From sequence record MW883059: DNA of 64,000 nt, one strand, 5' to 3'. The position numbers and the translations under genes are program-made. The stretch comes from Escherichia phage vB_EcoM_SYGD1. The notes beneath the pieces were generated by a model. That model did not search any database. It was not told where the DNA came from and saw nothing but the letters and a program-made list of their open reading frames with translations. The stretch's first letter is position 1, and each line of letters starts with the position of its first letter. This document shows positions 13,885-20,746 of the stretch, one piece after another.

Positions 13885-14217
13885 ATGAAAACGATTAATC
13901 TGAACGCTGCAGTTAAAACTAAATGCTTCAACGGTAAATATGATGAAACTATGTGGTTCTTAATGGCAGTTGAAGGTGATATTATTGAAGTAGAAACAAC
14001 AGAAGGTATGGGAACAGATTTCACCTTTACAATTCAAGTTCATAATTTCTTTACTGGTTGGATTTATGAATTGAATACAGTAATCGTTGGAAAAATTGAA
14101 CAAAATGAATTAGGCGAATGGTATTATGTTACAGCTCGCCAACGTGCCGAACACTTAATTGAGAAGATGAAAAAAGTTGGTAAACTTGACATGCAACATT
14201 GGAAAGTAGTAAAATAA
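13885..14217 (+). CDS. hypothetical protein (30.8 position)
   Basis: 110-codon ORF with AAGGAG RBS. Confidence 0.6.
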   Translation: MKTINLNAAVKTKCFNGKYDETMWFLMAVEGDIIEVETTEGMGTDFTFTIQVHNFFTGWIYELNTVIVGKIEQNELGEWYYVTARQRAEHLIEKMKKVGKLDMQHWKVVK

Positions 14218-14690: not shown

Positions 14691-14978
14691 ATGTTTATGA
14701 CTACTTATTTTGATACCCGCAAAAATTTCTGTGAAGTGGTTTTCTCTAAGGCGCCTAAAGACCTTCCTGCTCATTTGCAGCCTACCAGTGAATCGATTAA
14801 AAACTACGTTAATGTAGTCTGCTCTTTAGAGTTCCGTACTGTAAATGGCCGTGATACTTTAGCTATCACTAAACTCAATCGTGAAATTGACATTGACCCT
14901 TCAATTGCGAGTGAAATTAATATTTCTGACATTGGTGGTGGTAATGTTAAATCGCACGGATTTCAGATGAGGTTCTAA
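14691..14978 (+). CDS. hypothetical protein (30.6 position)
   Basis: 95 aa from ATG 14691 with GAGGA RBS (ORF track start 14640 is a TTG). Confidence 0.55.
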   Translation: MFMTTYFDTRKNFCEVVFSKAPKDLPAHLQPTSESIKNYVNVVCSLEFRTVNGRDTLAITKLNREIDIDPSIASEINISDIGGGNVKSHGFQMRF

Positions 14979-15175
14979 TGAAATTCTTTTTGGGTCAAAC
15001 TGTTGAATTAAAGGGAGTCGGTATACCTGGATTAATTTCTAAGGTTTTGCCTGCATTTAAATGGAGAGACGTTCAAATAAAAGAGGCTTATATTGTTTCC
15101 TGGGTAGATGGAAATGAAGACCTTCGTATGGATGATGAATTATCTCCTATCTATGGATTAAAGGAATTAGTATGA
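14978..15175 (+). CDS. hypothetical protein (30.5 position)
   Basis: 65-codon ORF. Confidence 0.5.
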   Translation: MKFFLGQTVELKGVGIPGLISKVLPAFKWRDVQIKEAYIVSWVDGNEDLRMDDELSPIYGLKELV

Positions 15176-15378
15176 ATATAATTAATAAGATTTTTGGAAT
15201 TCAGTACATTAAGGTCACATATAAAGTAACGTATAAAGGTCCGTATACCGATGAACATGAAGAACCACAAGTTAAGTCTATTATATTAGAAAAGGACCCT
15301 AACTGGCCAGTTGAATTTCGTCTTCCTTGCTATGGTCATTGGGCTGATGTTGAAATTATAAGTATTGAAAATGTCTGA
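15172..15378 (+). CDS. hypothetical protein (30.4 position)
   Basis: 68-codon ORF. Confidence 0.5.
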   Translation: MNIINKIFGIQYIKVTYKVTYKGPYTDEHEEPQVKSIILEKDPNWPVEFRLPCYGHWADVEIISIENV

Positions 15379-15829
15379 GCTAGAGATAAGAAGCAATTTT
15401 AGATGGCCATCATGTGCATTAAGCAATTTCGCCCAATGGCCTTTCGTTATGGATGGTATCCAATTTGGAGGTCTCGAAGGATTCCTCCAAGGGTGTAAGG
15501 TGAAAAATGTTGAACAGCAACGTCGTATATTTGGGTTATCCGGGATTGCCGCCCAACAAGCTGGACGAGCTTATGCTAGAGCTCAGGACCGTGGGACCCT
15601 CTTCTGGCTTGGAGTTCCGTTTTCAAGATACTCCCCGGCGTGGAAAGAATTATACACAAATGCATATTTTGAAGCAGCGATCCAAAACAGGGGCTTTCGT
15701 GATGCATTACAAGCCTCGAAAGGAAAAGTTTTGAAGCACAGCATAGCTAGTGGTCTAACAAAAGATGATACAATACTAACCGAAGCTGAATTTATTGATG
15801 TGTTAAACCTACTAAGAGACTCTCTATGA
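15371..15829 (+). CDS. NADAR (YbiA-like) domain protein (30.3 position)
   Basis: 152 aa from ATG 15371; LSNFAQWPFVMDGIQF resembles the YbiA/NADAR FSNFAAWP..VDG motif. Confidence 0.7.
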   Translation: MSELEIRSNFRWPSCALSNFAQWPFVMDGIQFGGLEGFLQGCKVKNVEQQRRIFGLSGIAAQQAGRAYARAQDRGTLFWLGVPFSRYSPAWKELYTNAYFEAAIQNRGFRDALQASKGKVLKHSIASGLTKDDTILTEAEFIDVLNLLRDSL

Positions 15830-16689
15830 AGCCTACTATTTTGACTGATATTGATGGAGTATGTTTAAGCTGGCAATCAGGTCTTCCTTATTTTGCTCAG
15901 AAATATAATCTTCCGTTAGAACATATTTTAAAAATGATCCAAGATGAGAAATTTATTTCTCCAGGTAAACTCTTTAATTGTGATGAAGAACTTGGCGTCA
16001 AGTTAATTGAAAAATACAATCGTTCAGATTTTATTCGTTACTTGTCTCCGTATAAAGATGCCCTGTGTGTAATTAACAAATTAAAAGAAGATTATAATTT
16101 TGTAGCTGTTACAGCATTGGGTGATTCTATTGACGCTCTGTTGAATCGTCAATTTAATTTGAATGCTCTTTTTCCTGGTGCCTTCTCAGAAGTAATGATG
16201 TGTGGTCATGATTCTTCAAAAGAAGAGTTATTCAAAAAGGCAAAAGAGAAATATAACGTAATTTGTTATATTGACGATCTCGCTCACCACTGCGACCACG
16301 CGAGTGAAATATTAAATGTTCCGGTTTATTGGATGGCTCGAGGAGAGCGTGACAATATTCCAAAAACTGCGCAGCGAGTTTATACATGGAATGATGTAGA
16401 AAATAAGCTTTTTTCGCCGAAGGAAAATAAAGAAAGTTTTGATAGTGAAAAAGCTATAAAAGATGTAATTGAGAAGATGGTTAAAAACGATTCTTTTCGT
16501 TGGAACACTACCTGGAGAACTCCTGGATTTAATCCTTATAATCCATATTATACGCATCCATATAATCCATATTATACACACCCGTATCATATGAATCCAT
16601 TCCATACGTGGAGTTATACTAAGCCTGGCGACGCAGGGTATTTTAATAGACTTACTAGTGGTGATAATATTTTCCAAGGAGCATTCTAA
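15826..16689 (+). CDS. HAD-type 5'(3')-nucleotidase-like protein with C-terminal Pro/Tyr-rich repeat (30.2 position)
   Basis: 287 aa; N-terminal ILTDIDGV and later YIDDLAHH; C-terminal NPYNPYYTHPYNPYYTHPYHMNPFH. Confidence 0.65.
   Translation: MKPTILTDIDGVCLSWQSGLPYFAQKYNLPLEHILKMIQDEKFISPGKLFNCDEELGVKLIEKYNRSDFIRYLSPYKDALCVINKLKEDYNFVAVTALGDSIDALLNRQFNLNALFPGAFSEVMMCGHDSSKEELFKKAKEKYNVICYIDDLAHHCDHASEILNVPVYWMARGERDNIPKTAQRVYTWNDVENKLFSPKENKESFDSEKAIKDVIEKMVKNDSFRWNTTWRTPGFNPYNPYYTHPYNPYYTHPYHMNPFHTWSYTKPGDAGYFNRLTSGDNIFQGAF
16537..16584 (+). repeat. 24-bp tandem duplication inside the 15826 ORF
   Basis: TATAATCCATATTATACGCATCCA followed by TATAATCCATATTATACACACCCG. Confidence 0.7.
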
Positions 16690-16958
16690 TGTTTGTTGTT
16701 CACACTATTTATGAAAATGAAGGTAATACTACACGTGATTACGGTCACGTAAATCAATTTTTTAGATGCAATCCAGAATTCCGAGCTCAAAAAGACGAAC
16801 GAATTTTTAAAAAATGTGTAGAGCAAGGTTTCATTTACGTCAAGCACTGGATGCAAGGAAATAAAGTTAGAACTACATATCATAGGTCTTTAACTGAGCT
16901 TAATGATGAATTGATTTATAATAGAGCTGTAAACCAAACCTTGAAGGATGAGCAATGA
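16689..16958 (+). CDS. hypothetical protein (30.1 position)
   Basis: 89-codon ORF; ATG overlaps previous stop. Confidence 0.55.
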   Translation: MFVVHTIYENEGNTTRDYGHVNQFFRCNPEFRAQKDERIFKKCVEQGFIYVKHWMQGNKVRTTYHRSLTELNDELIYNRAVNQTLKDEQ

Positions 16959-18415
16959 TTCTTAAAATTCTGAATGAAATAGCATCTATTGGTTCAACTA
17001 AGCAGAAGCAAGCAATTCTTGAAAAGAATAAAGATAATGAATTGCTTAAACGAGTATATCGTCTGACTTATTCTCGTGGGTTACAGTATTATATCAAGAA
17101 ATGGCCTAAACCTGGTATTGCTACCCAGAGTTTTGGAATGCTGACCATTACCGATATGCTTGACTTCATTGAATTCACGTTAGCTACTCGGAAATTGACT
17201 GGAAATGCTGCAATTGAGGAATTAACTGGATATATCACTGATGGTAAAAAGGATGATGTTGAAGTTTTGCGTCGAGTGATGATGCGAGACCTTGAATGCG
17301 GTGCTTCAGTATCTATTGCAAACAAAGTTTGGCCAGGTTTAATTCCTGAACAACCTCAAATGCTAGCAAGTTCTTATGATGAAAAAGGCATTAGTAAGAA
17401 TATCAAATTTCCAGCCTTTGCACAGTTAAAAGCAGATGGAGCTCGGTGTTTTGCTGAAGTTCGAGGTGATGAATTAGATGATGTTCGTCTTTTATCGCGA
17501 GCTGGTAATGAATATCTAGGATTAGATCTTCTTAAGGAAGAATTAATCAAAATGACTGCTGAAGCCCGCCAGATTCATCCAGAAGGCGTGTTAATTGATG
17601 GCGAATTGGTATACCATGAGCAAGTTAAAAAGGAACCAGAAGGCCTAGATTTTCTTTTTGACGCTCCTGAAAATAGTAAAGTTAAAGACTTCGCAGAAGT
17701 AGCTGAATCTCGTACTGCTTCTAATGGAATCGCTAATAAATCTTTAAAGGGAACTATTTCAGAAAAAGAAGCCAAATGCATGAAGTTTCAGGTCTGGGAT
17801 TATGTTCCGTTAGTAGAAATATACGGTCTTCCGGCGTTTCGTTTAAAATATGATGTACGTTTTTCTAAACTAGAACAAATGACATCAGGATATGATAAAG
17901 TAATTTTAATTGAAAACCAGGTAGTAAATAACCTAGATGAAGCTAAGGTAATTTATAAAAAATATATTGACCAAGGTCTTGAAGGTATTATTCTCAAAAA
18001 TACCGATGGATTGTGGGAAAATGCTCGTTCAAAAAATCTCTATAAATTTAAAGAAGTAATTGATGTTGATTTAAAAATTGTAGGAATTTATCCTCACCGT
18101 AAAGACCCTACTAAAGCGGGTGGATTTATTCTTGAATCAGAGTGTGGAAAAATTAAAGTAAATGCAGGTTCAGGCTTAAAAGATAAAGCTGGTGTAAAAT
18201 CACATGAACTTGACCGTACTCGCATTATGGAAAACCAAAATTATTATATTGGAAAAATTCTAGAGTGCGAATGCAACGGTTGGTTAAAATCTGATGGCCG
18301 CACTGATTACGTTAAATTATTTCTTCCGATTGCGATTCGTTTACGTGAAGATAAAACTAAAGCTAATACATTCGAGGATGTATTTGGTGATTTTCATGAG
18401 GTAACTGGTCTATGA
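16955..18415 (+). CDS. 30: ATP-dependent DNA ligase
   Basis: 486 aa; adenylation motif AQLKADGARCF; MILKILNEIASIGSTKQKQAILEKN... Confidence 0.95.
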   Translation: MILKILNEIASIGSTKQKQAILEKNKDNELLKRVYRLTYSRGLQYYIKKWPKPGIATQSFGMLTITDMLDFIEFTLATRKLTGNAAIEELTGYITDGKKDDVEVLRRVMMRDLECGASVSIANKVWPGLIPEQPQMLASSYDEKGISKNIKFPAFAQLKADGARCFAEVRGDELDDVRLLSRAGNEYLGLDLLKEELIKMTAEARQIHPEGVLIDGELVYHEQVKKEPEGLDFLFDAPENSKVKDFAEVAESRTASNGIANKSLKGTISEKEAKCMKFQVWDYVPLVEIYGLPAFRLKYDVRFSKLEQMTSGYDKVILIENQVVNNLDEAKVIYKKYIDQGLEGIILKNTDGLWENARSKNLYKFKEVIDVDLKIVGIYPHRKDPTKAGGFILESECGKIKVNAGSGLKDKAGVKSHELDRTRIMENQNYYIGKILECECNGWLKSDGRTDYVKLFLPIAIRLREDKTKANTFEDVFGDFHEVTGL

Positions 18416-18600
18416 AAGCTTACTTAGAAACAATTGTCGTGGCTCAAAAAGAAGGTGGAGATGTTTCTACTTCGGTATCACAAGTCATTCTCGAATTTGT
18501 AGATGCATATGCTTATAATAAATTTACAGAAACATTTGATGCCTACGAAAAAGGTCCAAAGTTTGAAATATATCGTACTCTCTTACCACTAGATTATTAA
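18412..18600 (+). CDS. hypothetical protein
   Basis: 62-codon ORF coupled to ligase stop. Confidence 0.5.
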   Translation: MKAYLETIVVAQKEGGDVSTSVSQVILEFVDAYAYNKFTETFDAYEKGPKFEIYRTLLPLDY

Positions 18601-18649: not shown

Positions 18650-20746
18650 ATGATGGAACTTATTACAGAATTATTTGACGAAGATACTACTCTTCCGATT
18701 ACAAACTTAAATCCAAAGAAGAAAATACCGCAAATTTTTTCAGTTCATGTTGATGACGCAATTGAACAACCAGGCTTTCGTTTATGTACCTATACATCTG
18801 GAGGTGATACTAATCGCGATTTAAAAATGGGCGATAAAATGATGCATATTGTTCCTTTTACATTAACTGCTAAAGGTTCAATTGCTAAATTAAAAGGTCT
18901 CGGTCCAAGCCCAATTAATTACATCAATTCAGTTTTTACTGTTGCAATGCAGACGATGCGTCAGTATAAAATTGATGCATGTATGCTCCGTATTCTTAAG
19001 TCTAAAACTGCTGGTCAAGCTCGACAAATTCAAGTTATTGCTGATAGACTTATCCGTAGTCGTTCAGGTGGCAGATACGTCCTTCTTAAGGAACTCTGGG
19101 ATTACGATAAAAAGTATGCATATATTCTTATACATCGCAAAAATGTATCACTAGAAGACATTCCAGGAGTTCCGGAAATTAGTACAGAGCTCTTTACTAA
19201 AGTTGAATCGAAGGTCGGCGATGTTTATATCAATAAAGATACCGGAGCTCAAGTAACTAAAAATGAGGCAATTGCAGCATCTATTGCGCAAGAAAACGAT
19301 AAACGTTCTGACCAAGCTGTAATCGTTAAAGTTAAAATTTCCCGTAGAGCAATTGCACAAAGTCAGTCATTGGAATCTTCTAGATTTGAAAGTGAATTAT
19401 TCCAAAAGTATGAATCTACCGCAGCTAATTTCAATAAACCTGCTACCGCTCCTTTAATTCCCGAAGCGGAAGAAATGAAACTTGGAATTAATTCATTAGC
19501 TTCTAAAACCAAGGCAGCAAAAATTATTGCCGAAGGAACCGCAAATGAACTTCATTATGATTATAAATTCTTTTCAAAAAGTGAGGTTGATGAAGTTTCT
19601 GAAAAGATTAAAGATGTAATTCTTAATGCGATTAAAAATGAACCAACTACTTCAATAAAATGTTTAGAGAAATACGCAGCAGCCGTTAATCAACTCTTTG
19701 AAGAATATAAAGATAATTGGCTTGATAAACATAATAAAACTCGTAAAGGGCAGTCAGATGAAGTCTGGGAAGAAATAACTAAAAATTCCTGGAACGCAGC
19801 AAAAACTAAATTCCTCAAAAGAATGATTTATAGTTTTTCTGGAATTGGTGCAGGTCCAATGATTGATATTACTATTGCCCGTGATGGTTCTAAATATACT
19901 CCATCACAAAAGCGTGGCATTAGAGAGTATTGTGGTTCAGGATATACTGACATCAATAATCTTCTTTTAGGACGCTACAATCCAGAACGATATGATGTAA
20001 TGAGTGAAAAAGAAATTGAATCTGCTATAAATAACTTAGATTCAGCTTTTGAAAATGGTGACCGTATACCAGAAGGCATTACAGTTTATCGTGCTCAAAG
20101 TATGACTGCTCCTATATACGAAGCACTAGTTAAAAATAAAGTGTTCTATTTCAGAAATTTTGTATCTACTTCTTTAACTCCTATCATTTTTGGACGTTTT
20201 GGAATTACACATGCTGGTATCGGTCTTTTAGAACCAGAAGCTCGTAATGAATTAACAGTTGATAAAAATGAAGAAGGAATAACTATTAATCCAAACGAAA
20301 TAAGAGCGTATAAAGAAAATCCTGAATACGTTAAAGTTCAAATAGGATGGGCAATTGATGGAGCTCATAAAGTTAATGTTGTATATCCAGGAAGTCTCGG
20401 AATAGCAACTGAAGCTGAAGTTATTTTACCACGCGGATTGATGGTCAAAGTTAATAAAATAACTGATGCTTCTAATAATGACGGAACAACATCTAATAAT
20501 ACAAAACTCATTCAAGCTGAAGTTATGACTACGGAAGAACTCACCGAATCAGTAATTTATGACGGTGACCGTCTAATGGAAACTGGTGAAGTAGTTGCAA
20601 TGACAGATGATATTGAAATAGAAGACAGAGTTGACTTTGCATCATTTGTTTCATCAAATGTTAAACAGAAAGCAGAATCATCTCTCGGAATTATTGCGTC
20701 TTGCATAGATATTACAAACATGCCTTACAAGTTCGTTCAAGGATAA
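18650..20746 (+). CDS. alt: Alt ADP-ribosyltransferase (virion-packaged, modifies host RNA polymerase)
   Basis: 698 aa; MELITELFD... N-terminus; C-terminal ART-like YRAQ / STS / EAE elements. Confidence 0.9.
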   Translation: MMELITELFDEDTTLPITNLNPKKKIPQIFSVHVDDAIEQPGFRLCTYTSGGDTNRDLKMGDKMMHIVPFTLTAKGSIAKLKGLGPSPINYINSVFTVAMQTMRQYKIDACMLRILKSKTAGQARQIQVIADRLIRSRSGGRYVLLKELWDYDKKYAYILIHRKNVSLEDIPGVPEISTELFTKVESKVGDVYINKDTGAQVTKNEAIAASIAQENDKRSDQAVIVKVKISRRAIAQSQSLESSRFESELFQKYESTAANFNKPATAPLIPEAEEMKLGINSLASKTKAAKIIAEGTANELHYDYKFFSKSEVDEVSEKIKDVILNAIKNEPTTSIKCLEKYAAAVNQLFEEYKDNWLDKHNKTRKGQSDEVWEEITKNSWNAAKTKFLKRMIYSFSGIGAGPMIDITIARDGSKYTPSQKRGIREYCGSGYTDINNLLLGRYNPERYDVMSEKEIESAINNLDSAFENGDRIPEGITVYRAQSMTAPIYEALVKNKVFYFRNFVSTSLTPIIFGRFGITHAGIGLLEPEARNELTVDKNEEGITINPNEIRAYKENPEYVKVQIGWAIDGAHKVNVVYPGSLGIATEAEVILPRGLMVKVNKITDASNNDGTTSNNTKLIQAEVMTTEELTESVIYDGDRLMETGEVVAMTDDIEIEDRVDFASFVSSNVKQKAESSLGIIASCIDITNMPYKFVQG

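Follow-up and report, generated by a model that had tools for sequence, protein, structure and literature searches.

An intact adfN (T4 gene 30.3) allele in Escherichia phage vB_EcoM_SYGD1 probably encodes the T-even NADAR-fold guanine-ADP-ribose glycohydrolase that counters DarTG1

We analyzed a 64,000-nucleotide stretch of DNA from Escherichia phage vB_EcoM_SYGD1 (sequence record MW883059), which is referred to here as the window. The gene under study, adfN, overlaps gene 30.4 by 8 nt at its 5' end and gene 30.2 by 4 nt (ATGA) at its 3' end (for coordinates, see Table 1). The gene order, 30.8 ... 30.4/30.3/30.2/30.1/30/alt.1/alt, is the same as that in the T4 RefSeq record. The DNA around adfN is 90 to 97% identical to that of hundreds of Tequatrovirus genomes, and the best DNA matches over positions 14900 to 17000 are ~97% identical. 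An earlier note on this DNA, which was made from the sequence alone, had described a plus-strand, 152-residue open reading frame close to the ligase gene, with Alt 3 kb downstream. The open reading frame is as described, the peptide quoted from it (SCALSNFAQWPFVMDGIQFGGLEGFLQGCKV) corresponds exactly to residues 14 to 44, and the context is also correct, with a measured distance to Alt of 2.8 kb.

Table 1. Positions in the window of adfN, its functional residues, and neighboring features
Feature	Position	Strand	Remarks
Best plus-strand site of the promoter/terminator scan	14186-14215	+	11/12 matches; 1.2 kb upstream of adfN
adfN (T4 gene 30.3 ortholog)	15371..15829	+	ATG start, 152 aa + stop codon
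N-terminal NADAR core motif, residues 13-44	15407..15502	+	PSCALSNFAQWPFVMDGIQFGGLEGFLQGCKV; in register with YbiA SNFAAWP...DG...SEHYFQAQKF
E36	15476..15478	+	Codon GAA; catalytic glutamate contacting distal ribose of ADP-ribose; 55/55 homologs
K43	15497..15499	+	Codon AAG; lysine of catalysis or ADP-ribose binding, retained in at least 90% of 55 homologs
30.3' overlapping ORF	15507-15734	+	Out of frame, 75 codons inside adfN; annotated in T4 as "internal translation in a different reading frame"
H123	15737..15739	+	Codon CAC; phage-clade-defining histidine; 55/55 homologs
C-terminal alpha-helix, residues 138-152	15782..15826	+	Model helix 138-151; C-terminus same as that of T4
Gene 30.2	15826-16689	+	287 aa
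Tandem repeat in gene 30.2	16532-16577		24 bp, 1.9 copies, 95% matches
DNA ligase	16955-18415		Downstream of adfN; orthologous to T4 gene
alt.1 ortholog	18412-18600	+	62 aa; between ligase and Alt
Alt	18650-20746	+	2.8 kb downstream of adfN; orthologous to T4 gene

Gene 30.2 is coupled to adfN in translation by the ATGA overlap, and one GenBank record, that of HY01, names its product haloacid dehalogenase-like. The product matches phrog_420 and, weakly, the polynucleotide kinase family phrog_415. It is longer in this phage than in T4 (278 aa), and its His/Pro/Tyr-rich C-terminal tail, which has diverged from the T4 tail, contains the tandem duplication listed in Table 1, which doubles the peptide NPYYTHPY. 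The alt.1 product matches the Pfam family "Phage blade protein" (PF24647, E 2.2e-29). Alt itself shares only ~71% of its first ~500 residues with T4 Alt, and it matches RB32 Alt at every one of the first 67. The ligase, 30.1, and adfN flanking Alt are 98 to 99% identical to their T4 counterparts, and the sequence comparison as a whole points to an Alt that is mosaic or fast-evolving.

The frame of 30.3', which lies inside adfN, is open in this window and in T4, RB32, HY01, and RB55. Substitutions among these phages fall mostly at third codon positions of the AdfN frame and alter the 30.3' frame 2 to 8 times more often than the AdfN frame, and no consistent alternative-frame open reading frame is present in 8 distant adfN homologs. 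Based on these two observations, we find no sign of protein-level constraint on 30.3' and have rejected it as a second protein product. A scan for promoters and terminators gave results at chance level (22 sites compared with 21 expected). There is no plus-strand terminator-like site between the best plus-strand site and adfN; an early polycistronic transcript would fit this arrangement, which provides no evidence for one.

The adfN product matches the Pfam family PF08010 (Phage_30_3, "Bacteriophage protein GP30.3") over the entire length of the profile (positions 1 to 138 of 138) with an E value of 3.8e-70 and a score of 234.5 bits, for which the cut-off is 36 bits, and PHROGs assigns it to phrog_652 (E 3.6e-50). 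It is equal in length to T4 gp30.3 (NP_049816) and shares 149 of 152 residues with it, which is an identity of 98%. The three substitutions relative to T4 (I59L, A67S, and R107K) are all conservative, are located away from the catalytic residues, and leave untouched every position at which the family alignment shows no or almost no variation. Judged by these sequence comparisons, the protein is a member of the gp30.3/AdfN family and the ortholog of T4 30.3.

Direct searches with this protein give no match to the Pfam NADAR model PF08719, even at E ≤ 1, and no matches in NCBIfam or PADLOC. A single-sequence phmmer search against the PDB also returned nothing meaningful (a spurious match to an N-type ATP pyrophosphatase had an E value of 0.43). 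These negative results are attributable to the divergence of the clade and to its being modeled separately, rather than to missing homology. PF08719 is matched by 29 of 55 members of the clade, with a best E value of 4.8e-7, and there are precomputed double matches as well. When the family profile, which was made from an alignment of 55 homologs at 37 to 86% identity, is compared with the PDB, the top match is E. coli YbiA (PDB 2b3w; E = 0.0028), and the family consensus aLsnfakhpFvldgvevasmEGFLqslkf is placed on YbiA DFSNFAAWPIKVDGKTWPTSEHYFQAQKF.

The AlphaFold2 model built from the 55-homolog alignment has a pLDDT of 93.7 and a pTM of 0.89, and a fold search with it returns NADAR structures only. 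Residues P13, L17, S18, N19, F25, E36, G37, F38, and Q40 are invariant in the 55 homologs, and in the model H123 is the final residue of the last beta-strand (residues 120 to 123). In phage NADARs, the catalytic residue of this strand has been described as His, as opposed to Glu in the YbiA type and Asp in the DarG1 type (PMC11543638; the histidine is also stated in PMC11125620 and PMC12945103). H123 is thus the last-strand histidine of the phage NADAR clade, with its equivalence to the Glu and Asp of the other types taken from these papers. The allele in this phage is full length to residue 152, with the C-terminal helix intact and with E36, K43, and H123 all present. Based on its fold, its catalytic residues, and transitive sequence homology, we conclude that the protein belongs to the NADAR superfamily.

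The earlier note had claimed a NADAR fold and a resemblance to the YbiA core, and the fold search and the 55-member profile agree with it on both points. It had also named the lack of a significant NADAR HMM match as grounds for refutation. Taken literally, this is the result for the protein, which has no PF08719 match of its own, but the test was badly posed, since Pfam models the phage clade apart as PF08010 and members of the clade do match PF08719. The label "YbiA-like" is appropriate for the fold but is imprecise for the family, in that the last-strand Glu of YbiA is a His here and the DarG1 antitoxins are the nearest neighbors of the clade in the published phylogeny.

The function of T4 gp30.3 is well documented in the literature. 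NADARs were established as guanine-ADPr hydrolases by Schuller et al. (Mol Cell 2023; PMC11543638), and in vitro T4 gp30.3 hydrolyzes G-ADPr and leaves T-ADPr intact (PMC11125620; its guanine-ADPr N-glycohydrolase activity is also reported in PMC12945103). Johannesman et al. (Nat Commun 2025; PMC11825919) mapped the DarTG1 resistance of T-even phages to gene 30.3, which they renamed adfN. Deletion of adfN sensitizes T4 and T2, such that they form no plaques on DarTG1 hosts, and RB69 is rescued by ectopic AdfN (PMC11825919). The RB69 allele is frameshifted and truncated 15 residues early, with loss of the C-terminal helix and reduced activity, and that phage is DarTG1 sensitive (PMC11825919). 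Purified T4 AdfN strips ADPr from DarT1-modified DNA while the E36A protein does not, the E36A and K43A variants give only partial rescue in vivo, and in a two-hybrid assay T4 AdfN does not bind DarT1 (PMC11825919). In a T4 transposon screen (HIDEN-SEQ preprint, bioRxiv 10.1101/2025.11.20.689424), 30.3/adfN is dispensable on E. coli K-12 and indispensable on a DarTG1 host, with 30.3 insertions disappearing on the latter host alone.

Based on the family assignment, the residues and fold of the protein, and this published work, we conclude, with a probability of roughly 0.93, that the gene encodes AdfN, the T-even "anti-DarT factor NADAR," a guanine-ADPr glycohydrolase that acts against DarTG1. 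On infection of a host that carries DarTG1, the DarT1 toxin would ADP-ribosylate guanines of the phage DNA, and replication would be blocked. AdfN, as a minimal, orphan, core-only NADAR-fold N-glycohydrolase, would cut the guanine-ADP-ribose bond by means of E36, K43, and the clade-specific H123, which would restore unmodified DNA and allow phage replication to proceed. It is predicted to act enzymatically on the lesion rather than by binding the toxin, and to be specific for guanine-ADPr and not for the thymine-ADPr made by DarT2. The chemistry, the effects of the mutants, and both necessity and sufficiency in infection have been established by others on the T4 protein; the orthology, the intact full-length allele, the conserved catalytic residues, and the NADAR fold come from the present analysis. 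Because the two proteins are 98% identical and all known functional residues are intact, the allele of this phage, with its three conservative substitutions, would be expected to behave like that of T4.

Reversal of host DarT-like DNA ADP-ribosylation had been suggested in the earlier note, and the near identity to a protein with published guanine-ADPr glycohydrolase activity and DarTG1 counter-defense function supports this suggestion. Of the two experiments that the note proposed, sensitization by deletion has already been published as a positive result in T4 and T2. In contrast, rescue by expression has been published as a negative result: T4 gp30.3 expression does not relieve the toxicity of DarT1 in uninfected E. 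coli (PMC11125620). T4 AdfN also rescues non-T-even phages only weakly. The picture of AdfN as a free-standing antitoxin is therefore incomplete, and T4-type AdfN would need an additional phage-specific factor or context. Tentatively, AdfN may need a partner encoded by the phage or some property of phage DNA during replication, and His123 may tune its specificity, although we regard this as a minority prospect.

The main importance of this locus is in its annotation. The gene is labeled "hypothetical protein" in all 20 best DNA matches and in the RefSeq T4 record, among the records examined, although it is an experimentally validated counter-defense gene. In the HY01 and RB55 records (479-859 in both), gene 30.3 is started at Met27, which corresponds to positions 15449-15829 of the window and a product of 126 aa. 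This start drops the invariant P13, L17, S18, N19, and F25 of the NADAR motif. The finding itself is already known: the allele is an ordinary and intact one, it adds no biology beyond the literature of 2023 to 2026, and the window gives no pointer past the known function of AdfN. In practical terms, adfN predicts growth of T4-like phages on DarTG1 hosts, which is relevant to host-range prediction and phage therapy, and the intact allele predicts that this phage would be DarTG1 resistant.

We compared the gene context of adfN homologs in 8 distant phages (Acinetobacter, Aeromonas, Klebsiella, Sinorhizobium, Vibrio, Ralstonia, Proteus, and RB49-like Escherichia phages). DNA ligase is within 5 kb of the homolog in 4 of the 8, gene 30.2 in 3, and Alt in 2, in one of which it is on the opposite strand. 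Each of these genes is missing from the vicinity of the homolog in half or more of the 8 phages, which argues that any potentiating partner is not a conserved neighbor, and we have rejected 30.2 (HAD-like), ligase, and Alt as a conserved module with adfN or as the T-even potentiating factor. In Aeromonas phage 31 (L006 5001-5450) and Ralstonia phage RSP15 (L010 4995-5513), the adfN homolog is inside a tRNA gene cluster, and in Sinorhizobium phage phiM12 (L008 5007-5462) it is near genes for a CCA-adding enzyme and an RNA ligase; in all three phages it is away from the ligase and Alt genes. Acinetobacter phage Konradin has a gene annotated as a putative ADP-ribose pyrophosphatase (NudE; L005 1903-2427) beside pseT, ~2.5 kb upstream of its adfN homolog, and NudE would be a plausible sink for ADP-ribose released by AdfN.

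The alternative that survives best is a role that would be additional to, and compatible with, the removal of DarT1 lesions. AdfN could have a broader substrate range, such as guanine-ADPr in RNA or tRNA or the lesions made by other guanine-specific ADP-ribosyltransferases, for which pierisin- or ScARP-like toxins and undiscovered defense systems are candidates. The T4 NADAR does remove G-ADPr from RNA in vitro, but less well than DarG1 (PMC11833690; PMC12945103), and an enzyme that acts on the lesion would be indifferent to the toxin that made it (discussed in PMC11825919). In addition, the family is found in 1,510 phage records, many of them from phages with hosts other than E. coli. The placement of homologs in tRNA clusters or by RNA-repair genes in phage 31, RSP15, and phiM12 is compatible with a role on RNA; however, T4-like phages generally collect accessory genes in their tRNA regions, which makes this context weak evidence, and the placement may reflect no more than that. 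Moreover, the sole reported in vivo phenotype is specific to DarTG1, and only the NADAR and YbiA families, not the phage NADAR, are credited with the reversal of C-ADPr (PMC12945103). We consider a broader range possible but on the whole unlikely.

Far less probable is that the protein reverses the modifications made by Alt, ModA, and ModB or clears the free ADP-ribose that is their by-product. The argument for such a role, which the earlier note had also made, is that Alt is located 2.8 kb downstream, here as in T4. The survey of distant phages does not support this rationale: with Alt within 5 kb of the homolog in so few of them, its adjacency is synteny of the lineage. Furthermore, the T4 record gives Alt as a mono-ADP-ribosyltransferase that acts on host RNA polymerase, whereas the linkages that NADARs are known to cleave are base linked (to guanine and, in some families, cytosine), and adfN is not required on E. 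coli K-12, a host in which Alt is active. No evidence was found in favor of the proposed management of ADP-ribose by-products.

Still more remote is a housekeeping role like that of YbiA, as an N-glycosidase that removes reactive intermediates of the riboflavin pathway. The fold and the N-terminal motif are common to this protein and E. coli YbiA, but the Glu that defines the last strand of YbiA is replaced by an invariant His, the published phylogeny puts the clade nearest the DarG1 NADARs and not YbiA (PMC11825919), and there is no riboflavin gene context in the window or in the T4 record. Equally improbable is a decayed or inactive allele like that of RB69, which would leave the phage DarTG1 sensitive: the idea arose from tblastn alignments to many T4-type phages that stop at residue 144, which suggested C-terminal variation in close relatives but are an artefact of the low-complexity SEG filter, and with the filter off the alignments cover residues 1 to 152 and the HY01 C-terminus is identical, so that nothing speaks for decay in an open reading frame that is full length, has the same C-terminus as T4, and retains every catalytic residue.

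Among known systems, two other T-even anti-DarT factors differ from the protein that we conclude to be AdfN. AdfM (T4 Tk.4) is a macrodomain protein that has been proposed as an analogous glycohydrolase against the thymine-ADPr made by DarT2; its fold and its target base are different. AdfA is nonenzymatic and binds DarT1. Judging from the map offset to T4, the genes for AdfM and AdfA would not be expected in the window. E. coli YbiA (PDB 2b3w; PF08719, NADAR/DUF1768) is a housekeeping enzyme that is linked to riboflavin metabolism and encoded in a LexA-controlled operon. The last-strand Glu that characterizes the YbiA family sensu de Souza and Aravind is a His in this protein, which places it outside that family.

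DarG1, the NADAR antitoxin of DarTG1 (BC4488 family; structure 8bat, from G. lovleyi), has a darT gene adjacent to its own, whereas AdfN is an orphan. DarG1 also carries an N-terminal extension that AdfN lacks (219 aa compared with 152 aa, with 132 residues aligned), its last-strand catalytic residue is Asp rather than His, and AdfN cannot replace it in uninfected cells. The protein from this phage has none of the three features of the DarG1/BC4488 family, which are the last-strand Asp, the N-terminal extension, and an adjacent darT1. AdfN(Bas32) and AdfN(Bas60), the NADARs of T5-like phages and Vequintavirinae, are likewise orphans that counter DarTG1 by removing guanine-ADPr, but they belong to other NADAR clades and were acquired independently. 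They neutralize DarT1 without infection and rescue unrelated phages, while the T4-type protein is fully effective only in T-even infection. Closest of all is T4 gp30.3/AdfN, which is the same gene: 152 aa, 98% identity, synteny, E36/K43/H123, and the C-terminal helix are common to both. The differences are that this phage is a different Tequatrovirus, that the protein has three substitutions, and that its Alt is only 71% identical to that of T4.
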